A stretch of DNA of 64,000 nt from Candidatus Nanoarchaeia archaeon (GTDB lineage: Archaea; Nanobdellota; Nanobdellia; Woesearchaeales; GW2011-AR9), in the NCBI GenBank assembly GCA_035290865.1, contig DATDTM010000012.1:11134-75133 (forward strand), read 5' to 3'. A model generated the notes under the pieces. The model was given only the letters and a program-made list of their open reading frames with translations. It did not search any database and was not told the DNA's origin. Position numbers and translations under genes: made by a program. Below are positions 4,865 to 64,000 of the stretch, in pieces. Positions within the stretch are counted from its first letter, which is position 1, and every line of letters begins with the position of its first letter.

Positions 4865-5905
4865 TTGCTCTTTATTACTTTCATGAGAGTTTTGACTCCT
4901 TCCCGGCAATTGCTTAAGCTTGATGCTAACGACTGGAAAATTCTTTCTGAAATCAAAGATAATGCCCGTCAGCCGTTAACTAAAATTGCAGAAAAAGTCC
5001 ATCTTTCCAGGTCGGCTGTTGAGTACAGGCTGAAACAGATGCATCAAGAGCAATTAATTACTGGATATCGAACTTTAATCAATATTCATAAATTAGGATA
5101 TAAGTCTTACCATGTATTTTTGGATGCGCATACCCCCCATGAAGAAAAAGAGCTGCTGGCCAGAGCCATTAATGCTGATTATGTTAATGCTTTAATTCTC
5201 TACAGCGGAAGATACAATTTAGAGATTTCTATCCTGGCCAAAGATGAGCTAGACTTTCTGGAGAAATATGCTCAATTAGTAGATAAGATCCACTTCCGCA
5301 AGGATTTATATCTAATTTTATTGGAGACAATCTCAGCAAGAGTCCTTCCTGATAAATATATCCAAAAAGGCCAGCCTAAAGAAAAATCTTTTCTTACTCT
5401 AAAAAAGAAGAATAATTCCTCTAAACTGGATTTGGTAGATGTAAAACTGCTTTATTCCATCTCCAAAGAGGCGATTAAAACCTATCTTTCTTTAGCCAAA
5501 GAGCTAAACGTATCTAAAGATGCCTTGAAATACCGCTTAAAGAAATTAGAAGAGAATGGGACCATTCTAGAATATCGGCCGGCAATTAATTATTCCGCCC
5601 TGGGATTATCCATCAATGCGGTATTAATCAACTTAAGCCAGGATACTGAAAAAATAAAGCAGTTTGAAAATTTTTTGAAAAATGAGCCATCAGTTTTATG
5701 GTCAGCACGAACTTTCGGATATTATGATTATCTTCTTTATGTCATCAGCCAGGGGTTGGACGAGTTTCATCAGACCATTAATAATCTTAAAAAACAGTTC
5801 GCGGAATTGATTAAGAATTATGAGGTGCTCTTCGCTTATGAAGAAGTAAAGTATGAATTCATCTCTAAAGGTATGGTGGAAGAATTGAGTAGGAAGTTAA
5901 AATGA
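4865..5905 (+). CDS. tandem Lrp/AsnC-type HTH transcriptional regulator
   Basis: Two AsnC-like wHTH segments, each followed by a RAM-like region (LDANDWKILSEIKDNARQPLTKIAEKV... and LDLVDVKLLYSISKEA...). Confidence 0.55.
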   Translation: MLFITFMRVLTPSRQLLKLDANDWKILSEIKDNARQPLTKIAEKVHLSRSAVEYRLKQMHQEQLITGYRTLINIHKLGYKSYHVFLDAHTPHEEKELLARAINADYVNALILYSGRYNLEISILAKDELDFLEKYAQLVDKIHFRKDLYLILLETISARVLPDKYIQKGQPKEKSFLTLKKKNNSSKLDLVDVKLLYSISKEAIKTYLSLAKELNVSKDALKYRLKKLEENGTILEYRPAINYSALGLSINAVLINLSQDTEKIKQFENFLKNEPSVLWSARTFGYYDYLLYVISQGLDEFHQTINNLKKQFAELIKNYEVLFAYEEVKYEFISKGMVEELSRKLK

Positions 5906-6214
5906 AATATGTGAAAAACATCTTAAACAGATAAGGTTACAATAACCTTATATACCACTAATTCTGTTTAGAATATTATGAACCGAAAATCTGTCTCATT
6001 AATAATCTGATTTATATTTATACTTACTTTTCTCATCTTTGGTTGTTCAAATAAACTTGAGGTTAATTGTGATAATCTTAACGGAACAGATTGCTTGATA
6101 TATCAAAATTCCTGTGAACTATGTCCAGAGAAAATAGTTTCTAGTTATGTCGGCTGTCATACCCTAGACTTTTGCAATAAAATTCCAATTCAGTAATGCA
6201 CTTTTAAGAAAAAA

Positions 6215-7414
6215 TCACTTTCCCGCCACGATCTCCAGCACATCCAAATTCTTCAACAGGTACTCTTTACCCACCGCTCTTTTGGTGCGCACATCTTTAG
6301 CGCAGATAAAATTCTTGCCAAAATCAGTATGCAATTTATAGGCGAAGTCCAAGGCCGTGGATTTAGGAGGCATTAGGAAACAGTCAGGAAGGCATCTTCC
6401 TTCCGAATCTTCCAGTTTAGATACCCCTCCGGGAAAGATAGCTAAATAACCTAATAACTCAAAAACCGCTTTATCCAATACTTGCTGCACTCCCGTACTC
6501 CCAAATTGCTCCAAGATATTTTGCTGGATAAATTTCAGGGCATTTTTCTGTTTCTCAGATAATCTTTTCTCATCTAAAATCTTAAACTGATTCTCTCCAG
6601 GAATATATTCAATTAATCCTGCTTTGGCCGCTTCCCGTAAAGCCAGTTCAGACTCCGCAGAACAGCCGATAAATATCCGGTCTGAAAATTCTTTTTTAAT
6701 TCTGACTAAATTTTCTTTCGCTCCTTTTACATCAATTTTATTAGCAGCAATAAGCATGGGCTTGGTTTTCTTACGTAACACCAGAGCTAATCTCTCTAAA
6801 TCTTTCTCTGTCCAGGAAGCAGGCTTATCTTTATCTAAGTTCAGCTCTTTGATGGTATCTTCCATCATCTTTTCAGTAACTTTCAATCCGGAAAGCTGCT
6901 GAGCCAGAGCAATTTTAATCTCTTTCTTTTCCTGCTGGACTGTTCTGGCAAACCTCTCCCAGCCTTTCTTTAAGATTCCTAAATACCATAGATCCAGCTC
7001 TACTTCTAAGAATTTAACATCATTGGCTGGATCGTAACCACCGGAAGCGATTGGCTCTCCTTTCTCGTTGGTAGTCCCGCCCATATCTACCACATGGATT
7101 AAAACATCAGCCTGACGCAAATCATCTAAGAACTGATTGCCCATGCCCTTACCCTCATGCGCCCCAGGCACTAAACCGGCTACATCAATCATTTGCATGG
7201 GAACAAAACGGAACTCTTTAAGCACATAACCTAAACGCGGATTAGACACTTTATTGAAATCTTTGGCTGGATCTTTAACCTTAACGTAACCTACTCCGGT
7301 GTTCGGTTTGATGGTTGCGAAGGGATAATTAGCGATCTCTACTTCCGCCAGCGTAGCTGCTTTGAAGAAAGTTGATTTTCCTACGTTGGCTTTACCTACG
7401 ATTCCTACAATCAT
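6215..7414 (-). CDS. Obg-like GTPase (YchF/Ygr210 family) with C-terminal TGS domain
   Basis: N-terminal P-loop GIVGKANVGKST with NKID and DxxG elements; C-terminal TGS-like segment. Confidence 0.8.
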   Translation of the reverse strand: MIVGIVGKANVGKSTFFKAATLAEVEIANYPFATIKPNTGVGYVKVKDPAKDFNKVSNPRLGYVLKEFRFVPMQMIDVAGLVPGAHEGKGMGNQFLDDLRQADVLIHVVDMGGTTNEKGEPIASGGYDPANDVKFLEVELDLWYLGILKKGWERFARTVQQEKKEIKIALAQQLSGLKVTEKMMEDTIKELNLDKDKPASWTEKDLERLALVLRKKTKPMLIAANKIDVKGAKENLVRIKKEFSDRIFIGCSAESELALREAAKAGLIEYIPGENQFKILDEKRLSEKQKNALKFIQQNILEQFGSTGVQQVLDKAVFELLGYLAIFPGGVSKLEDSEGRCLPDCFLMPPKSTALDFAYKLHTDFGKNFICAKDVRTKRAVGKEYLLKNLDVLEIVAGK

Positions 7415-7512
7415 ATTTAGGCTAAATTCATCAGTTATTTTTATTCTTTGTTATTGAAAACAACGATTTTTAAAGAAATAAATATAAACCCTAAAGTAAT
7501 TAACTTTAAAAT

Positions 7513-7604
7513 CTGAATTTTCCACCAGTGTTGCACATGTGGCATAAGCTCCAGCGAGATTACATCACGTGGAAAATTCAGGGTCTGAGGAAACCGCGGT
7601 TTCC
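7513..7604. repeat. MITE-like hairpin repeat (family 4, inverted copy of 63185-63253) plus GGAAACCGCGGTTTCC hairpin
   Basis: CTGAATTTTCCAC...GTGGAAAATTCAG terminal inverted repeat. Near-identical reverse complement of 63185-63253. Confidence 0.7.
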
Positions 7605-9406: not shown

Positions 9407-11212
9407 ATGAAAAATTATCTCAAAAAGTATGAGAAGATTGATTTAAAATACAATCTGAAAACGCTTTGGGGTTTCGTCAAGAAATATCGCTGGTCTTTTT
9501 ATGGATTGATTTTCTTGATGCTATTAAACGAGATTTTTGCTTTTTTAGACAATTTTGCTTTTAAGTACTTAGTAGATAAGGGCACCTTGTTCAGCCAGGG
9601 GAATCTTTCTCCAGAAACTCTCTGGGAAATCTTATTGATCATTGTTTTCTTATTCATTCTGCTTAAGATCATCAGTGCTCTTTTCTGGTTCATCACCTTA
9701 AGGGTAGTCAACCTGATGGAAGCAAAAGTAATGAACGATATCGAAAAGAAATCGTTTTGGCATATTCTAACTTTATCCTACCGTTTCCACCTCAATAAGC
9801 GTACCGGATCTTTGATCTCCCAGTTTACCAGAGGGGTGAATAAGGTAGAAGCTTTTGGAGACGCCATCATCTTCAACTTTATCCCTGTATTCTTTCGTAT
9901 CTTGCTTTCAGTAGGAGTAATCTTCTATTTTGATATTGCTACATCTTTAGTAGTATTGATCACCTGTGTACTCTTCGCTATGGTGGGAATTTACTTTACC
10001 AACCTGCAAAAAGTACCTCAAAATATAGCTAATTACCATGAAGATAACCTAAAACAGAACCTTAGCGATGTTTTTCAAAATATCGAGACCGTGAAATATT
10101 TCGCTAAAGAGAAAGACACTTATCATTATTTTAGTACCCTCTCAGAAAAATTAAAAGTCGCCAGAAATAAGTTCTGGAATTATTTTTCCTGGCTCTCTGC
10201 AATAGACACTTTGGTTTTAGGGTTGGGCATCGCAGCTATCTTTTATTTCAGTTTTACCGGCTTGATGCAGGGAAGAATCAGTTTAGGCAGCATTACTTTA
10301 ATTTACGCTGCAGTTTGGAGATTAATCCCCATGCTCTTTAATTTAATGCATGGCTATCGCCAATTCATCCGTAGCAGCGTGGATGTAGATGCTTTATTTC
10401 AGATGTTCAAAGAAGAGAATGAAGTAATAGATTTACCTGAAGCAAAAAAGCTTCAGGTTGCTCAGGGAAAGATTGAATTCAAGAATGTTTCTTTCGCTTA
10501 TCCAGCCAGCGGAAGGGATAACCGAACCGTAATCAAAAATTTTAGTCATATTCTTAAGCCCAATACCAAAGTCGCTTTAGTTGGTCCCTCTGGTGGGGGA
10601 AAGACCACGGTCATCAAACTGCTCTACCGTCTCTTTGATCTTCCGGAAGGACAAATCTTAATTGATGAACAAGATATCCATCAAGTCGCCCAGGAATCAT
10701 TGCGCAATTCCATCAGTGTAGTTCCTCAAGAGCCGATTTTGTTTGATAATACTCTATGGTTTAATATTGCCTATGCTAACCCCCGTGCAGGCAAAAGAAA
10801 GGTTTGGCAGGCCATCAGGTTCGCTCAGCTGGATAAATTTATTGCCCAGCTACCTAAAAAAGAAAAGACTATTGTCGGAGAGAGGGGGGTAAAATTATCC
10901 GGAGGAGAAAAACAAAGAGTCAGTATTGCCCGAGCCATCCTTGCCGACAAAAAAATCCTGGTTTTAGACGAAGCTACCTCTGCTCTAGATTCAGAGACAG
11001 AAAAAGAGATTCAAGCTTGCCTAGAAAAGTTGATGAAAAATAGGACTACTATCATGATTGCCCATAGACTATCTACGATTATGAAAGCCGATGAGATTAT
11101 TGTCCTAGATCAAGGGCGGATTGTTGAGATAGGCACCCATGATCAGCTCGCTAATAAGCAGGGCGGGCTATACCAAAGATTATGGGGGTTGCAAAGAGGA
11201 GGAAGATTGTAA
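9407..11212 (+). CDS. ABC transporter, fused permease/ATPase (MsbA-like exporter)
   Basis: Six transmembrane segments followed by Walker A GPSGGGKTT, signature LSGGEKQRVSIARA and Walker B ILVLDEATS. Confidence 0.85.
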   Translation: MKNYLKKYEKIDLKYNLKTLWGFVKKYRWSFYGLIFLMLLNEIFAFLDNFAFKYLVDKGTLFSQGNLSPETLWEILLIIVFLFILLKIISALFWFITLRVVNLMEAKVMNDIEKKSFWHILTLSYRFHLNKRTGSLISQFTRGVNKVEAFGDAIIFNFIPVFFRILLSVGVIFYFDIATSLVVLITCVLFAMVGIYFTNLQKVPQNIANYHEDNLKQNLSDVFQNIETVKYFAKEKDTYHYFSTLSEKLKVARNKFWNYFSWLSAIDTLVLGLGIAAIFYFSFTGLMQGRISLGSITLIYAAVWRLIPMLFNLMHGYRQFIRSSVDVDALFQMFKEENEVIDLPEAKKLQVAQGKIEFKNVSFAYPASGRDNRTVIKNFSHILKPNTKVALVGPSGGGKTTVIKLLYRLFDLPEGQILIDEQDIHQVAQESLRNSISVVPQEPILFDNTLWFNIAYANPRAGKRKVWQAIRFAQLDKFIAQLPKKEKTIVGERGVKLSGGEKQRVSIARAILADKKILVLDEATSALDSETEKEIQACLEKLMKNRTTIMIAHRLSTIMKADEIIVLDQGRIVEIGTHDQLANKQGGLYQRLWGLQRGGRL

Positions 11213-33075: not shown

Positions 33076-33229
33076 GTCAAAATGCTCGCGACCACCACCG
33101 GTCAGAGACCGGTGGCATGCTCGCCCTTCGGGCTCGGGTCGCTCACATCATAAGAGCTGAGCATTTTGACTTAGGAATGTAACTAGTGTTTAAACCACTG
33201 GTGAAAACACCAGTGGAATGACTTTATTC
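33076..33229. repeat. MITE-like element (family 2; TIR GTCAAAATGCTC) plus CCACTGGTG hairpin module
   Basis: 12-bp perfect terminal inverted repeats at 33076/33170. Core CACCACCGGTC-AGA-GACCGGTGG is shared with the 40191 and 63120 copies. Confidence 0.7.
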
Positions 33230-45565: not shown

Positions 45566-45850
45566 GGGTCAGCTAGGCTGGCGCGCTAGCCCTGCGTTGT
45601 TACCGTGAATGAGCTTTACACGGAGCCGAAGCCTGATAAAAGGGCCAGTTTGGTTTTGTTGGTCCTGATCCGCTTTGCAGACAGCTTGTCCTTTGGGATG
45701 GACTTGCTGGGAATCTGGTCAGATCCGGAAGGAAGCAGCCATAACCTGTAGGTTTCATGTTCAGAGGGTCGCAAGCTCGAGAGGCTTTCAGGAACAAACC
45801 AATGGAGCTATATTGGTTCGATTGTCGGGCCTGCCCCTAAAGTTTCTTTT
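45566..45850 (+). ncRNA. signal recognition particle RNA (7S RNA)
   Basis: GGUCAGAUCCGGAAGGAAGCAGCCAUAACC matches the helix-8 core of 4.5S/7S RNA (GGUCAGGUCCGGAAGGAAGCAGCC). GC-rich island with a TATA-like box ~30 bp upstream. Confidence 0.75.
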
Positions 45851-58909: not shown

Positions 58910-59854
58910 TTGTTTCAATTTAATCCAAAAATGTTCTTACAAAAGAGAGTGATTAATGGAATTACTTATACTTACTTAGACCATAGTTTTCGCATTGGAA
59001 ACGAAGTTAAAAAAGTTTCTTTAATTCTGGATAAGAATAAACAAGATTATAATGAAGCGATAATAGAAAAAATCGCTGCTGCCCGTGCGGCATATTTCAC
59101 CAAAAACTTCCAAACTTATTTTTCAGAAGAGGAAATGACTAAAATTGAAACTGAAAAGATATTTTATCAAATATTCTTTAACTCATTAGACCGAAAATTC
59201 CAAGAAGCCATCTGGGAAGAATATTTACGCCTCTTTCTAGCCAACAGTATGGAATTAGAAGGATCAACTATAACTCCTCAGCTGGCAGAGAATATTGATA
59301 AGAGAAAGAGAACAATTTTGCCTGAAGCAGAAGTTAAATTATATCATAACTCTAAAGGTGCATTCAAAGAGATAATAGGCTCTGAATTAAGGTCTGTAAT
59401 CCAGTTTAAGCAATTTCATCAAATGATTTATGAGGGAATCATCCCAGATGCAGGCAATTTCAAAAAATTGCCCAACACTTTTGGTTATACTGAAAAAGCA
59501 AGAACCGCTCCTCCAGAAAAAGTAAGATTAGAATTAAAGAAAACCTTAGAGAATTATCAGAATAAAGAGATATACCCTTTCCTAAAGCCGTTGCTATTCC
59601 ACTTAAATTACCAGAAGACTCATCCTTTCACTGATGGAAACAGCAGGCTGGGAAGGATACTCCTGGTAGCGCAGATGTGTAAGTTGAATTATCCTGCCCT
59701 GATCTTCAAAGGTGATTTGGGTTTCCAGATCAGAGAGACTTTAATGGAATATATCAATCGTAACCACTTGGATTTCTGCAGGTTATGCTTAGAGCAATAT
59801 TTGCTAACTTCAATAAAATTCTGGAGGCCAATGATTAGGAAGTATTTGTATTGA
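58910..59854 (+). CDS. fic: Fic/Doc-family protein (AMPylase-like)
   Basis: HPFTDGNSRLGR matches the Fic motif HxFx(D/E)GNGRxxR. Confidence 0.8.
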   Translation: MFQFNPKMFLQKRVINGITYTYLDHSFRIGNEVKKVSLILDKNKQDYNEAIIEKIAAARAAYFTKNFQTYFSEEEMTKIETEKIFYQIFFNSLDRKFQEAIWEEYLRLFLANSMELEGSTITPQLAENIDKRKRTILPEAEVKLYHNSKGAFKEIIGSELRSVIQFKQFHQMIYEGIIPDAGNFKKLPNTFGYTEKARTAPPEKVRLELKKTLENYQNKEIYPFLKPLLFHLNYQKTHPFTDGNSRLGRILLVAQMCKLNYPALIFKGDLGFQIRETLMEYINRNHLDFCRLCLEQYLLTSIKFWRPMIRKYLY

Positions 59855-60000: not shown

Positions 60001-60843
60001 TTAACGCACACTTTGAACATCAGAAATTATCTTTTTAGCAATTGTCTCAGCAAGGAAAGAGTTATTAATCAGTTCTACGTTTATTTTTTGTTTTCCATTG
60101 ATTAATTCCATAAATCGGATATAATCCAAGTCTTCGTATGATCTTGCTTTCTGATATAATTCATCCAATTGCTTAGCTAATTCTTTCGGAACTGAAAGCT
60201 TAAGCAAAAATGGGCCGGAAGTGCCATAATAATTAATGTTATTAAATGAAGGAACAATCTTGGAGATACAATTTTTACCAGAGTAATATTTTCTAGAAAT
60301 CTTGTCCAAAGAAGTATTTCCTGTGATTTTTACATATATTTTAGCATGATGTTTTGCGTGATTATTTATTAGACTATCTTCGTTTTCCAAATTACCGATT
60401 ACCCACCAAACATGATGGCCTTCCCAGGTTATAATCGGGTTTGTACTGATAGAAGCTCCTTTAACCTCAATTTCGCTCCAGAACAAATCACTCTGAACTA
60501 AGTTATCAAATTCATAAACAGAGGTTTCTCCCTTGGAAAATATATTATTATTCACAGAAGGTTTGATTTTGTTGTAATAAATTGCTAACCGCTCAAAAAA
60601 CTTCTTTCGTTCAATGATCCAGGCTAAACTTAGCTTATACTTGGCTTGGTCATTTTGTAGAATGCCTTCTGCCACCAGTTCTTTTACATTCTTAAATGTC
60701 GCCTGATAAGAATGTTTGTCCCCATCCAAAGAATGATGTATTTGCATTATGCTTAAAGGATACTTATTAATAAGGATATTAATTATCTTTTCTTTGCTTT
60801 TCATTTCAAGCGGGTTAAGCATAAATTCAAGTAAAGGAGGCAT
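60001..60843 (-). CDS. hypothetical protein
   Basis: 280-aa ORF. Confidence 0.45.
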   Translation of the reverse strand: MPPLLEFMLNPLEMKSKEKIINILINKYPLSIMQIHHSLDGDKHSYQATFKNVKELVAEGILQNDQAKYKLSLAWIIERKKFFERLAIYYNKIKPSVNNNIFSKGETSVYEFDNLVQSDLFWSEIEVKGASISTNPIITWEGHHVWWVIGNLENEDSLINNHAKHHAKIYVKITGNTSLDKISRKYYSGKNCISKIVPSFNNINYYGTSGPFLLKLSVPKELAKQLDELYQKARSYEDLDYIRFMELINGKQKINVELINNSFLAETIAKKIISDVQSVR

Positions 60844-60894
60844 CCATTTAAACTTTTTGGTTGATTTTCATTAAACCATAGATTTTTATAGATA

Positions 60895-61128
60895 TTGGTT
60901 AAAGTTAAGAGCATGGAGAGAACAATTGTTGAAGAAATGTGGGGGATTTACTCTCTATCATATGTAAAGAAAAGAATGTCAAAAGAAAGAGAAGAGCTGG
61001 ACAAACGCTATTATCAAAGAGCTACAGCGGGTGAAAGATTTGGCAGAGTGTTATATGACGCAATGGTAAATTTGTTGAAAGAGGCTTCAGATTACAGGAC
61101 ACAAAACCAGAAAAACACTGAAAAATAA
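60895..61128 (+). CDS. small ORF 1 upstream of the radical-SAM gene
   Basis: 77 aa; same strand and tightly spaced with ORF2, ORF3 and the rSAM gene. Confidence 0.35.
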   Translation: MVKVKSMERTIVEEMWGIYSLSYVKKRMSKEREELDKRYYQRATAGERFGRVLYDAMVNLLKEASDYRTQNQKNTEK

Positions 61129-61140
61129 AAGGGATACAAA

Positions 61141-61404
61141 ATGCCAAGAGAGAATAATATTTTCCAAAGAGAGATTAGATGTCACGTCCCAGATTCATAC
61201 GATGTATATTCGGGGGATATAATCGCAGTAATTTATCCTGACGGCCGGTCAGAAGTATTATGCGGATACGCGGTTAGAAGACACAATAATGGAGATCCAA
61301 TTATCGCCTGTTCTCTGAAAGAGAAGGACAGATTTGATGAAAAATTGTATCACAAAACTTCATGTGGGTATAATATTCAAAGAGAGTTAACGGATCAGTA
61401 CTGA
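61141..61404 (+). CDS. small ORF 2 (four Cys) upstream of the radical-SAM gene
   Basis: 87 aa; Cys at positions 14, 41, 57 and 75. Confidence 0.4.
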   Translation: MPRENNIFQREIRCHVPDSYDVYSGDIIAVIYPDGRSEVLCGYAVRRHNNGDPIIACSLKEKDRFDEKLYHKTSCGYNIQRELTDQY

Positions 61405-61437
61405 AATAAAAAGTTAAAACAATGGAGGGTATTAAAA

Positions 61438-61656
61438 ATGGTTGTATCTGAACAGTCTTTTGAAACGCTCGGAGCGTTATACCAACGCTATATTTTACAG
61501 AAGGACTCTTCTAAAGCAAGTGGGGATTTAAGTACCCCAGCATTAGATTACATCGTTGCCGAAACTGAATCGATGAGGGGCTATGATAAATGCAATCGGC
61601 AATATAGCGATTATAGAGATCGCGGTAAGTGTAGGTGTATACTGTTTTCAAGTTAG
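61438..61656 (+). CDS. small ORF 3, candidate precursor peptide with Cys-rich C-terminus
   Basis: 72 aa ending ...KCNRQYSDYRDRGKCRCILFSS; GGAGGG Shine-Dalgarno 8 nt upstream. Confidence 0.45.
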   Translation: MVVSEQSFETLGALYQRYILQKDSSKASGDLSTPALDYIVAETESMRGYDKCNRQYSDYRDRGKCRCILFSS

Positions 61657-61716
61657 AAGCAGCTATTTTGGTAGTTCAGCTTTATTAAACAGTAATGATT
61701 TTTCAGCACCATAAAA

Positions 61717-62874
61717 ATGAAAATATCTCGGCCAGATAAGTTTCCTCTTACGGTAATAGTTAAACCCACTAAGAGATGTAATTTAAGTTGTAAGTACTGT
61801 TATGAAGACACCAGCAGAGATAACAAATCAATGGATAATTCTACCCTCGAAAAGGTAATCTTTGAGGTTTTGGCTTACAATGACCAAGCTTTTGGGAATG
61901 GAAAGTTTGTGCAGGAAACAGAATTTATCTGGCATGGCGGGGAACCATTACTGATGGGAAAAGACTTTTTCCAAAAAATTAAATCGCTTCAACAAGAATA
62001 TTTAAGCGGTCGGACTGACCACAAAGTTAAAAATGGAGTGCAATCTAATCTAACTTTATTGACCCCGGAACTCTGGACTTTCTTAAGAGATGAAGATTTT
62101 GTGGTTGGTTCCAGTTTAGATGGTTCTAAAGAAATCCATGACCGTTGTCGGGTATACCAAAATGGTGAAGGGTCTTATAAAGCAGTAATAGAAGCCATAG
62201 ATTATACTAGACCAACATCAAGATCATTCTCTCCTATAGGTGTTTTAGTTGTTTTAACTAAAGACAAGTTAGATCAAATCTCCGAGCTGTATCATTTCTT
62301 TAAACAACAAAGAATCAATTTTGATTTTGGTCAATTATCTGTTGCCGGAAAAGCAGAAGAGAACCGAAGTTCACTGGAGGTGAGTGCGGAAGAATGGGGA
62401 AAAGCAATTATAGAGCTTTTTGATTTATGGTTTTATGATACCACTGAACCTTCTCTTTATATCTCTGAGTTAGTTAAATCTGCTGCAGGAGTTCTTAGTG
62501 GAAGTATTTCCTCATGTATGTTTTCAGGAAATTGTCGCCAAAGTTATATTTCTATAAACCCCAATGGAGAGGTATACCCTTGTGGACGTTTTGGAGCAGA
62601 AGAAACTTTTAAACTAGGGAATATTAATGCTCAGAGTCTCGCAGAAATTATGCAATCCCCCACCCAAAATTATTTACTCTCCCGAGATATAAGAACTATT
62701 GAAGATTGTAACGGATGTGAATATAAAAGCCTTTGCAACGGTGGTTGTTTTTATAATGCGTACTTAGCAACTGGTGATATTTTCCAGAAAGATCCACTTT
62801 GTGAAGGATATAAAATGGTTTACAAACATATTAGTAAAAGACTACAAGAACAATTAACTCAATTATTGATTTAG
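61717..62874 (+). CDS. radical SAM / SPASM-domain peptide-modifying enzyme (anSME-like)
   Basis: CNLSCKYC (CxxxCxxC) near the N-terminus; C-terminal SPASM CNGCEYKSLCNGGC and further Cys. Confidence 0.85.
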   Translation: MKISRPDKFPLTVIVKPTKRCNLSCKYCYEDTSRDNKSMDNSTLEKVIFEVLAYNDQAFGNGKFVQETEFIWHGGEPLLMGKDFFQKIKSLQQEYLSGRTDHKVKNGVQSNLTLLTPELWTFLRDEDFVVGSSLDGSKEIHDRCRVYQNGEGSYKAVIEAIDYTRPTSRSFSPIGVLVVLTKDKLDQISELYHFFKQQRINFDFGQLSVAGKAEENRSSLEVSAEEWGKAIIELFDLWFYDTTEPSLYISELVKSAAGVLSGSISSCMFSGNCRQSYISINPNGEVYPCGRFGAEETFKLGNINAQSLAEIMQSPTQNYLLSRDIRTIEDCNGCEYKSLCNGGCFYNAYLATGDIFQKDPLCEGYKMVYKHISKRLQEQLTQLLI

Positions 62875-63108
62875 AATAATTAAAATGAATGAGTACAGAT
62901 ATTCAATTAACCTAAAAAAGGCTTTTCTAATCCCTGAACAATAAAATGTATTTTCTCTTACCACCAAAAATTCGGAGACATTTATGTTTTTTGGATCGGT
63001 CATTAAAAACAGGTGGACTGGGTTTTTATCTTTTCCAAGAGATGGTTGAATATAATCAAAATGATTTAATTTAAACTAAATATTTTCATAAAAATTTATC
63101 TGTCAATC

Positions 63109-63253
63109 GGAAACCGCCCACCACCGGTCACAGACCGGTGGCATGCTCGCTCCCTTCGGTCGCTCGGGGCGGTTTCCTCAGACCCTGAATTTTCCACGAA
63201 ATGCAATCTCGCTGAAGCTTATGCCACCAGTGTAACACTGGTGGAAAATTCAG
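63109..63253. repeat. MITE-like composite (GGAAACCGCC TIR element with family-2 core + family 4)
   Basis: GGAAACCGCC...GGCGGTTTCC inverted repeats enclosing CACCACCGGTCACAGACCGGTGGCATGCTCGC. Followed by CTGAATTTTCCAC...GTGGAAAATTCAG. Confidence 0.7.
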
Positions 63254-63670
63254 ATTTTACTGGCCATCTTATTATCTGGCCTTTCAACTTCTAATACAAT
63301 TTTTTGCTTGTTCTTTGAGAGATATTCTTTCAGTAAGTCTGTTCCATTCCTTTTTCCCTAAATTCTTCTTTTATTGCCAAATATTCCATAACCCATAAAT
63401 CTCCAAAATCCCAATTAGTAACTATTGCAACTATTTTTTATCTTTAATAACAATGGAGAAAAAAGAGTATCGCTTGTTTTTAATCAGCTTTTTCTGTAAA
63501 TCCATTGTTCTTCTTTCGTCTGAAGGGAAAGAAGATTCATATATCCCCCACACTCCTCTAAATTCTGCTGAATTCTCGTCTCTTATTTTGATGAATCCCA
63601 TCTTGCAAGTGATAAGATTTAATCTTTTATTTATTGGGCTATTTATTGAGTAATATGAAGATGAGCCGAA

Positions 63671-64000
63671 TTATTCCACTGCAAAACTCCCCGCAACCAG
63701 CAGCGGAAAAGCGATCGTCGCATCGCAGTGGATTTTTACATTGGGAGCATTAACTTTTACCTTGCCCCAGGTAATCGCCTCTTCCACTCTCGCTCCTGAA
63801 TCCGAGCCGTCATATTCCTGGGCAGTATTGATATAAACTACAAAATCAAACCCTTCTTTGAAAATATTGGCATTGAGAGCAAAATGTTTGCTGATCCCAC
63901 CTCCTAAAATTATTCCTCCGGTCTTCTCAGAGTTTAATACCAGCTGAACTATATCTTTCATCTCTTTGGCTATATCAATCAGAAAATCCGGATGGCTCTG
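63671..64000 (-). CDS. dys: deoxyhypusine synthase (C-terminal part; gene continues beyond window end)
   Basis: GGGISKH and EYDGSDSGA motifs of DHS. Reading frame open to position 64000. Confidence 0.8.
   Translation of the reverse strand, partial: QSHPDFLIDIAKEMKDIVQLVLNSEKTGGIILGGGISKHFALNANIFKEGFDFVVYINTAQEYDGSDSGARVEEAITWGKVKVNAPNVKIHCDATIAFPLLVAGSFAVE

Follow-up and report, generated by a model that had tools for sequence, protein, structure and literature searches.

A peptide of 72 residues and the radical-SAM/SPASM enzyme encoded directly behind it form, at a probability of about three in four, a precursor-maturase pair of the kind that makes RiPPs, peptides that are synthesized on ribosomes and modified after translation. 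The pair would represent a rare and previously uncatalogued family, accompanied in this lineage by an accessory module. It lies in a 64,000-nucleotide stretch of a Candidatus Nanoarchaeia archaeon genome (assembly GCA_035290865.1, contig DATDTM010000012.1, positions 11,134 to 75,133 of the forward strand), called the window here. Three small open reading frames (ORFs) on the plus strand are followed by the 385-residue radical S-adenosylmethionine (rSAM) protein, and all four ORFs are present in the window. The third small ORF, ORF3, is very likely the substrate of the enzyme, judging from its sequence and from the company it keeps in other genomes.

60913..61128, plus strand: ORF1, 71 residues, predicted all-helical; present in four of the five loci that bear ORF2
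61141..61404, plus strand: ORF2, 87 residues with four invariant Cys; directly upstream of the peptide and rSAM pair in all five loci
61424..61429, plus strand: GGAGGG ribosome-binding site of ORF3, 8 nucleotides before its ATG
61438..61656, plus strand: ORF3, predicted precursor peptide of 72 residues; aligns with peptides upstream of close rSAM homologues
61603..61653, plus strand: predicted core or target region of ORF3, with the invariant Y, D, Y and C columns of a 13-sequence alignment
61717..62874, plus strand: predicted radical-SAM/SPASM maturase, 385 residues; DynA-like and anSME-like by Pfam, NCBIfam and alignments

An earlier sequence-only reading of this DNA had placed three co-directional small ORFs immediately 5' of the enzyme gene, and that is where they lie, all on the plus strand. 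It had also pointed to the Cys-containing tail of ORF3 and to the GGAGGG before its start codon, both of which are present. Its sizes for ORF2, ORF3 and the enzyme (87, 72 and 385 residues) hold, but the 77 residues given for ORF1 do not. A TTG at 60895 would give that length. Gene callers on identical contigs, and the homologue in locus L094, place the start at the ATG at 60913, which gives 71 residues.

The precursor peptide

A database search with the enzyme returned eight proteins at 49-56% identity, after which identity fell to 43% or less. Of the eight close proteins, five had their surrounding DNA inspected, as had two more relatives taken from the genome collection; loci L093 and L096 were covered as well. 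In all examined loci with an rSAM protein at least 49% identical to the window's (L006, L007, L010, L011, L012, L013, L014, L093 and L096, at 49-56%) an ORF3-like peptide of 51-75 residues is encoded directly upstream on the same strand. A hidden Markov model of the precursor, run over all ORFs of 92 loci, matched solely where the rSAM protein was at least 49% identical, and found no match in the 78 loci where it was 43% identical or less. A peptide profile picked out 11 clusters among 5.8 billion proteins, ORF3 being among them at E 1.4e-15. Two uncalled peptides bring these to 13 distinct precursors, and the shared motifs are found in all of them. No Pfam or NCBIfam model matched ORF3, the type-B peptides described below or the peptide of L015.

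The peptide consists of a variable N-terminal part and a conserved C-terminal part. In the alignment of 13 sequences the variable part carries the motif [PH]-A-[LF]-x-x-[IV]-[LVMF], which in ORF3 reads P34-A-L-D-Y-I-V40. The core spans residues 49-72 approximately (...NRQYSDYRDRGKCRCILFSS) and ends in the tail KCNRQYSDYRDRGKCRCILFSS. It reads Y56-S-D58-Y59-R-D61-R-G-K-C65-R-C67-ILFSS, that is, tandem triads, a C-R-C and a hydrophobic end. Invariant in the 13 precursors are the A of the PAL motif, Y-x-D-Y and one later Cys; the window peptide has three Cys, of which a single column is invariant across the family. A variable N-terminus with a motif and a conserved C-terminal part together give the leader and core anatomy of a precursor.

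The pair is found in hosts of both domains. Among archaea it occurs in L006, which has archaeal ribosomal protein genes, and in the window, L093 and L096, which are DPANN. Bacterial hosts are a Planctomycetia genome (L014) and a Firestonebacteria metagenome-assembled genome (MAG; L013). Sigma-54 or sigma-70 genes are on the contigs of L010 and L011, with a sigma-54 activator in L010. Since the hosts span both domains, the pair appears to move as a unit by horizontal transfer. The arrangement goes beyond chance, as seen from the E value of ORF3 in the profile search, the purifying selection on ORF2 and the recurrent gene order.

In L006 another precursor-like frame, a degenerate one (...QRLPALELILKDAKATENVAKKTVSYHNHYPTDACKRDW...), separates the precursor from the rSAM gene, at 5825-5998. 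It lacks an ATG, its core has decayed, and it may be a decaying duplicate.

The radical-SAM/SPASM enzyme

The radical-SAM site of the enzyme, C21-N-L-S-C25-K-Y-C28, has the CxxxCxxC form and is invariant in an alignment of 20 clade sequences. The SPASM cluster CNGCEYKSLCNGGC reads C331-NG-C334-EYKSL-C340-NGG-C344, and C267, C273, C289 and C362 belong to it as well. These residues make up the seven-Cys SPASM motif (C273...G284-x4-C289, C331-x2-C334-x5-C340-x3-C344 and C362), with C267 as the eighth Cys. All eight SPASM Cys of the anaerobic sulfatase-maturating enzymes (anSMEs) are thus kept, and they are invariant across the 20 clade members. Both domains score above their Pfam gathering thresholds (Radical_SAM PF04055, 45.1 bits against a cutoff of 29.5, E 1.5e-11; SPASM PF13186, 46.2 bits against 21.5, E 5.6e-12), which bears out the two Cys clusters that had been read in the sequence before.

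The best NCBIfam model is that of the dynobactin maturase DynA (NF041298), which aligns over its full length at 331.6 bits and does not reach its equivalog cutoff of 450. The anSME model TIGR03942 comes second, 83 bits lower, at 248.7 bits against a cutoff of 349.45. DarW (172 bits), TIGR04083 (169.9 bits, cutoff 300), PRK13745 and PRK13758 (162-163 bits, cutoffs 441-484) and DarE (152 bits) follow. The thioether maturases score 143.8 (PapB, NF047865), 101.5 (CefB), 94.0 (SCIFF, TIGR03974) and 93.4 bits (CcpM) against cutoffs of 340-600, so that DynA exceeds them by 190-240 bits. Models of enzymes that make three-residue cyclophanes (XyeB, GrrM, FxsB, YhhB and AmcB) give 86.5-140.8 bits against cutoffs of 310-450, YhhB being highest at 141. 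The mycofactocin rSAM model gives 73.5 bits, and PqqE matches at E 4e-05. Since no equivalog cutoff is reached, the enzyme stands outside every curated family. Among the archaeal relatives of the dynobactin maturase it stands nearest.

By sequence, the nearest solved structure is the Clostridium perfringens anSME (E 1e-37), followed by CteB and then the triceptide enzyme ChlB. With just 20 residues ahead of the first cluster Cys, the enzyme has no N-terminal recognition domain (RiPP recognition element, RRE). Its absence agrees with the full-length alignments to the 356-position DynA model and to anSME. The YPCD of anSME aligns to YPCG in the window enzyme, and the column of anSME Asp277 is occupied by Gly290, which is invariant in the clade. 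Asp277 is reported to be the catalytic base of anSME (Goldman et al. 2013).

Comparison with known systems

The system is, as far as its sequences can tell, closest to the dynobactin-type and triceptide cyclophane systems, and it is a member of no curated enzyme family. With the dynobactin system of Photorhabdus it shares the best-scoring model, a compact enzyme free of a recognition domain, a short adjacent precursor, and a core rich in aromatic residues and Asn/Asp that has aromatic-x-x triads. It differs in that the DynA score falls below the cutoff and in that ORF3 is unrelated to the dynobactin precursor sequence WNSNVHSYRF, its core being Tyr-based with an invariant Cys. The hosts here are DPANN archaea, Planctomycetes and Firestonebacteria, and no transporter is linked. 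The triceptide systems (XyeB, GrrM/OscB, FxsB, YhhB, AmcB and ChlB) likewise combine an rSAM/SPASM maturase with tandem aromatic-X-X core motifs, and WxN-type triads are among their known substrates. Their models, however, give only 86-141 bits, far under the cutoffs, and ChlB (PDB 9gm3) is without the N-terminal SPASM Cys residues that the window enzyme has.

The anSMEs (TIGR03942; PDB 4k36-4k39) are closest in solved structure, with the same length, domain layout and eight SPASM Cys. The score of 248.7 against 349, the Gly in the Asp277 column and the tie to a peptide gene instead of a sulfatase set the window enzyme apart. Ranthipeptide and sactipeptide systems (PapB, CteB, SCIFF) also have an rSAM/SPASM enzyme with a small Cys-containing peptide upstream, and the cassette found in L094 and L097 is of this kind. 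The window pair differs from them in its scores of 94-144 bits, in having no N-terminal recognition domain and in a core with one invariant Cys and invariant Tyr and Asp. TIGR04083, whose name rSAM_pep_methan suggests a methanogen family, describes a predicted peptide-modifying SPASM enzyme. The match to it is significant but stays under the cutoff; the family is a different clade and has no precursor in common with the window pair.

Proposed chemistry and the wider clade

Every one of the 13 cores holds two or three tandem aromatic-x-Asp/Asn triads ([WY]-x-[DN]). In the window these are Y56-S-D58 and Y59-R-D61, in L093 and L096 they are Y-K-D, Y-R-D and Y-K-D, and in the bacterial-type members W-x-N, Y-x-D and Y-x-[DN]. 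rSAM enzymes install three- and four-residue cyclophanes, and a W-V-N ring is documented as a cyclophane triad in the xenorceptides (bioRxiv 10.1101/2024.12.16.628070). DynA, like DarE, synthesizes cyclophanes (PMC11851443), and dynobactin A, of the sequence WNSNVHSYRF (PMC10125368), has two unlinked cyclophane rings. The tandem triads in all cores favour cyclophane links over thioethers.

In the mechanism proposed here, the ORF3 leader of about 48 residues would dock on the enzyme through the conserved P-A-L-x-x-I-[VL], and a separate recognition domain would not be needed, as for DynA and anSME. SAM would be reductively cleaved at the C21/C25/C28 cluster, and the resulting 5'-deoxyadenosyl radical would attack the C-terminal core, removing a hydrogen at an sp3 carbon. 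Capture of the substrate radical would lead to intramolecular cross-links, with the two fully Cys-ligated auxiliary clusters accepting the electron. The product would have two adjacent three-residue macrocycles, each joining a Tyr ring to an Asp beta-carbon (Y56 to D58 and Y59 to D61). Aromatic-to-beta-carbon, cyclophane-type i-to-i+2 links of this sort, as in dynobactin and the triceptides, are our tentative first choice, at somewhat short of an even chance. The main alternative, which is less probable, is a thioether formed by the invariant Cys; what probability remains goes to other radical chemistry on Tyr, Asp or Cys.

More distant relatives of the enzyme (30-39% identity) occur in Woesearchaeota, Methanosarcinales, Spirochaetia, Anaerolineales and Armatimonadetes. 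Their genes repeatedly adjoin sequences dense in Tyr-x-Asp/Glu/Asn, or such sequences are fused to the C-terminus of the enzyme. ORFs dense in Y-x-[DEN] number 17 of 1302 near the enzyme gene versus 10 of 8847 far from it in the same loci (odds ratio 11.7, p 1.5e-9). Examples are L015 (...EYKEYKDYKDYDDKYHTDEWV), L018 (...FYPDYGDFYDDWPEYMEYMEYDDYY...) and L023 (...HYPDYKVHNKYPEYKVYFEYKEY...), and in protein P0011 a Tyr/Asp-rich tail (...EYSDYDAYQGEYDEYWE) is fused to the rSAM C-terminus at residues 390-452 approximately. The YPDY motif recurs in L018, L020 and L023, and the repeat regions of the wider clade are mostly Cys-free.

The rSAM ORFs of L018, L020 and L023, like P0011, carry the substrate-like tail fused to the C-terminus of the enzyme. 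If the fused tails are substrates, these would be enzyme-substrate fusions. In two Micrarchaeota loci (L063 4819-4935 and L074 4818-4931; rSAM 30-32% identical) a conserved upstream peptide of 37-38 residues, ...KSKIL...WRGH[NR]..S[KS], is a candidate for another precursor family. L022 and L024 are two wider-clade rSAM copies on different contigs of one Aenigmatarchaeota MAG.

Accessory proteins

ORF2 has four homologues at 62-89% identity, and it is found in five distinct loci: the window, L093, L094/L095, L096 and L097. The gene order is the same in every one of them, that is, in four independent loci besides the window: an ORF1-like gene where present, an ORF2-like gene, a small peptide and the rSAM gene. 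A metagenome scan found the L096 locus again and nothing else, and viral contigs yielded no ORF2, their rSAM relatives not exceeding 34% identity; the ORF2 family thus appears limited to these five loci. In the five homologues 42 of the 87 positions are invariant, including Cys 14, 41, 57 and 75, the four spaced Cys noted in the sequence-only reading. The ratio of nonsynonymous to synonymous substitution rates (dN/dS) is 0.08-0.20. The invariant positions and the low dN/dS indicate a real, constrained protein and not a precursor.

An AlphaFold model of ORF2 from the five-sequence alignment had a predicted local distance difference test score (pLDDT) of 41 and was unusable. A role as a PqqD-like recognition element was unsupported, with only strands predicted and at low confidence, and an apparent internal repeat (GDxIIA...CGY, twice) was not significant (p about 0.07). 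ORF1 found only itself in a library of 1.8 billion representative proteins, and it matched nothing in Pfam, NCBIfam or PDB. Its single-sequence AlphaFold model is one long helix with a pLDDT of 85, which left a ribbon-helix-helix fold, suggested by eye, unsupported.

The gene divergently transcribed from ORF1 has a homologue of 72-73% identity at the same position in L094/L095 and a remnant in L093. Its dN/dS is 0.16. The 280-residue product has no significant match in Pfam, NCBIfam or PDB, and by eye only its N-terminus looks like a winged helix. We infer that Woesearchaeota-like DPANN archaea have, specific to their lineage, an accessory module made up of ORF2, usually ORF1 and often the 280-residue gene. 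Bacterial-type members of the ORF3/rSAM family have neither ORF1 nor ORF2. As for what the module does, peptide handling, immunity, a partner protein or a metal or redox helper can be named as little more than guesses.

Exchange of the cassette

60001..60843, minus strand: 280-residue gene, divergently transcribed; an ORF of no family recognized in Pfam, NCBIfam or PDB
61441..62912, plus strand: exchangeable cassette of precursor and maturase genes; interval in which blastn homology to L094 is interrupted

The pair that follows ORF2 is not the same in all five loci. L093 and L096 have the window's kind (type A), with peptides ending ...YKDSYRDYKDRG[KR]CRCMLFSS and enzymes 55-56% identical to that of the window. 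The Woesearchaeota MAG loci L094/L095 and L097 have another (type B). Its peptide of 65 residues ends ...ERGCGRYGCNCVNYDRSNCIIF and is Cys-rich, with four Cys, and its rSAM protein of 418-423 residues has an N-terminal extension and scores best with the PapB (105 bits) and SCIFF maturase (97 bits) models. A likeness between the type-A DPANN cores and the type-B core was not significant (p 0.05-0.3).

By blastn, the window and L094 are 80% identical in DNA over window positions 60013-61440, from inside the 280-residue gene to the start codon of ORF3. There is no similarity over 61441-62912, and it resumes at 62913, about 40 bp past the rSAM stop codon. The GGAGGG is the last conserved element before the breakpoint; its equivalent in L094, GGAGGA, stands ahead of the type-B peptide. 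Since homology breaks at the ORF3 ATG and resumes shortly after the rSAM gene, it is exactly the segment of peptide and enzyme that was exchanged, the ribosome-binding site being retained. The outer flanks differ as well: an AsnC regulator and a helicase in L096, a dCTP deaminase and a CYTH protein in L097, and the 280-residue gene and GNAT/deoxyhypusine synthase genes in the window and L094. ORF2 keeps its position before two unrelated pairs and within differing flanks, so it appears to work with the peptide and enzyme pairs and not to be a chance neighbour. The proposal that a precursor and a maturase are encoded here stands for ORF3; ORF1 and ORF2 as additional precursors have been dropped, ORF2 accompanying two unrelated pairs. 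Two of the outcomes that the sequence-only reading had set down as refuting it, a grouping of the enzyme with the anSMEs and small ORFs that lack conservation or co-localisation in relatives, were not observed.

As a bolder and rather doubtful extension, the locus in Woesearchaeota-type DPANN might be plug-and-play, a fixed accessory module serving whichever cassette sits behind it. The type-A cassette, horizontally shared with Planctomycetes and Firestonebacteria, would then make cross-linked peptides of a new class, either Tyr-Asp cyclophanes or mixed Tyr/Cys products. ORF2 would take part in the interaction of episymbiont and host as a RiPP partner of a new kind, be it for immunity, as a carrier or as a redox helper.

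Surrounding sequence

Downstream of the cassette, window positions 63101-63254 form a GC-rich structured element (54% GC versus 37% for the window) that is an insertion relative to L094. It is built of two modules. Module A (63115-63171) recurs at window 33089-33141 (88%) and at L096 60-111 (75%, with compensatory hairpin changes), and module B (63169-63259) recurs on the minus strand at window 7507-7597 (92%). Predicted folds have energies of -67 to -75 kcal/mol, and there is no Rfam or tRNA match. The element may represent small non-coding RNA genes or repeats resembling miniature inverted-repeat transposable elements. Positions 62865-63100 and 63255-63669 on the minus strand are what is left of a GNAT acetyltransferase gene, of which L094 has an intact copy (9857-10402). 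The window copy is interrupted by the GC-rich insertion, has no single ORF and is probably a pseudogene.

In L094 the last 90 nucleotides or so of the deoxyhypusine synthase gene (...KVKVNAPQVKIYCDATLAFPLLVAGSFAVE) are duplicated, at 6757-6846 and 10468-10507; the window counterpart is at 63674-63763. The two repeats of L094 bracket a block of the 275-residue gene, ORF1, ORF2, peptide, rSAM and GNAT genes. This att-like direct repeat suggests that the whole block of about 3.6 kb is an island inserted where the deoxyhypusine synthase gene has its 3' end. The L094 island shows no integrase, and the left repeat is missing from the window.

A gene with a Fic domain lies just upstream of the module, at window 58910-59854, and on a longer contig (L001 19778-20726) a nucleotidyltransferase/HEPN pair follows some kb downstream. 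These neighbours suggest an island-like or defence-like flavour for the locus. The window also encodes a CDC48-type ATPase and a deoxyhypusine synthase. An archaeal signal recognition particle RNA at 45566-45837 is the only Rfam match at the gathering threshold in the window, and ARAGORN found no tRNA genes in it. This RNA and the two genes mark the window as archaeal. A scan for promoters and terminators gave nothing above shuffled sequences, with a bacterial consensus applied to an archaeal host. Among the loci with close relatives of the pair, L007 (1344-5268) and L014 (300-4244) have three conserved upstream genes in common, encoding proteins of 226 residues (66% identity), about 325 residues (72%) and 523-756 residues; L011 has part of the largest. 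None has a Pfam match, and the cluster in its bacterial version may include them too. L006 and L012 have a divergent AbrB/PhoU-like gene in common.

Alternative explanations

Several points weigh against the interpretation given above. All family scores are below their equivalog cutoffs, so the chemistry of characterised enzymes cannot be transferred to this one. That the Tyr/Asp-rich ORFs of the wider clade are substrates is something we infer only. ORF2 has no Pfam, NCBIfam or PDB match. ORF1 is missing from L097, and its conservation is weak, with a dN/dS of 0.55 against L094 and 23-31% identity to the L093 and L096 versions. The window locus has no protease or exporter, nor do the other loci examined, which leaves the maturation and export of a secreted product unexplained. 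With regard to the cross-link, every precursor of the family keeps the Cys that follows the second triad, the tail D-R-G-[KR]-C-R-C-[IM]-L-F-S-S is strictly conserved in the DPANN subtype, and some wider-clade tails end in Cys (YEDCMVLT in L018, SSPMC in L023). Because of these three features a thioether, alone or in addition, is a serious alternative.

In that alternative the SPASM enzyme makes sactipeptide or ranthipeptide bridges from Cys of ORF3, and possibly of ORF2, to acceptor carbons, the class to which the sequence-only reading had looked. PapB-type ranthipeptide maturases form Cys-Asp links, and in every member of the family an Asp stands four residues ahead of the Cys. The one Cys is there in 13 of 13 precursors, the C-R-C is conserved in the DPANN subtype, the PapB, CefB, SCIFF and CcpM models are all significant though below their cutoffs, and the cassette that L094 has in place of the window's is PapB/SCIFF-like, its peptide having four Cys. 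We nevertheless consider it unlikely. The thioether maturase models reach 94-144 bits (PapB 144, SCIFF 94) against 332 for DynA, and in the cores it is Y-x-D-Y that is invariant, with one Cys. Sacti- and ranthi-synthases usually have an N-terminal recognition domain, which this enzyme does not. Its set of eight SPASM Cys is complete, as in anSME, so that no site on an auxiliary cluster is obviously open. The partner sequences of the wider clade are Tyr/Asp-rich and mostly Cys-free. ORF2, being selected, conserved and absent from the bacterial members, is not a precursor.

A precursor-maturase pair making cyclophanes also has to be set against readings in which the small ORFs play no such part. 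Were the enzyme an anSME, or another SPASM enzyme that matures a protein encoded elsewhere, the small ORFs would be incidental. TIGR03942 is indeed the second-best model, and the nearest solved structure is an anSME of the same size, with eight SPASM Cys and no recognition domain, but the score is 100 bits under the cutoff and 83 below DynA, and the enzyme does not group with the anSMEs. ORF3-like peptides accompany the close clade without exception, the small ORFs being conserved and co-localised in relatives, and the 64 kb hold no credible sulfatase signature (C/S-x-P/A-x-R), the lone regular-expression match being an 82-residue ORF. This explanation is barely credible. It is improbable, though less so, that ORF1 and ORF2 are mere syntenic neighbours with no functional link, such as a small toxin-antitoxin-like pair in an island. 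No bacterial-type member has them, ORF1 is fast-evolving and L097 has no copy of it, the setting is island-like (Fic upstream, HEPN/nucleotidyltransferase downstream in L001, the att-like repeat in L094), and the window and L094 are close relatives at 80% DNA identity, so that shared synteny is expected. ORF2, on the other hand, turned up at no other place among 5.8 billion proteins or when metagenomes and viral contigs were scanned, it directly precedes the peptide and rSAM genes in five of five loci despite their differing outer flanks, and it persists through the exchange of the cassette downstream. As an unrelated island gene ORF1 is plausible, ORF2 less so. The modified peptide might instead give rise to an intracellular cofactor or signal, as PqqA does with PqqE (a Glu-Tyr link) or as in the mycofactocin system. 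In PqqA, too, a Tyr and an acidic residue are the key residues, as Tyr and acidic residues are the invariant ones here; the pair is a minimal one of two genes with no exporter or leader protease in any locus examined, and the host genome is reduced. The PqqE and MftC models score low (E 4e-05 and 73.5 bits), however, the follow-up enzymes that cofactor pathways need are not linked, and a patchy distribution suggestive of horizontal gene transfer, with exchange of the cassette, is more typical of accessory or conflict functions. A cofactor role thus seems distinctly improbable.

Significance

We know of no characterised RiPP product from DPANN archaea. A survey of archaeal RiPPs reported that predicted rSAM RiPP clusters occur in DPANN, with lanthipeptides as the sole class yet characterised from archaea (PMC12144867). 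In the literature neither a precursor of the Y-x-D-Y type nor a description of this rSAM clade was found. The concept is known, and what is new are the precursor family, the ORF2 accessory protein and the exchange of the cassette; the cross-link is probably new as well.

A compact system of two genes, for a peptide of 72 residues and an enzyme of 385, is directly testable. The clean swap behind a conserved ORF2 is a natural experiment on how such clusters are assembled, and it points to an accessory protein family without known relatives. No described RiPP was found to match the core motif Y-x-D-Y-x-D. If the predicted Tyr-to-Asp cyclophanes are indeed formed, they would be a new type of cross-link in radical-SAM peptide chemistry.

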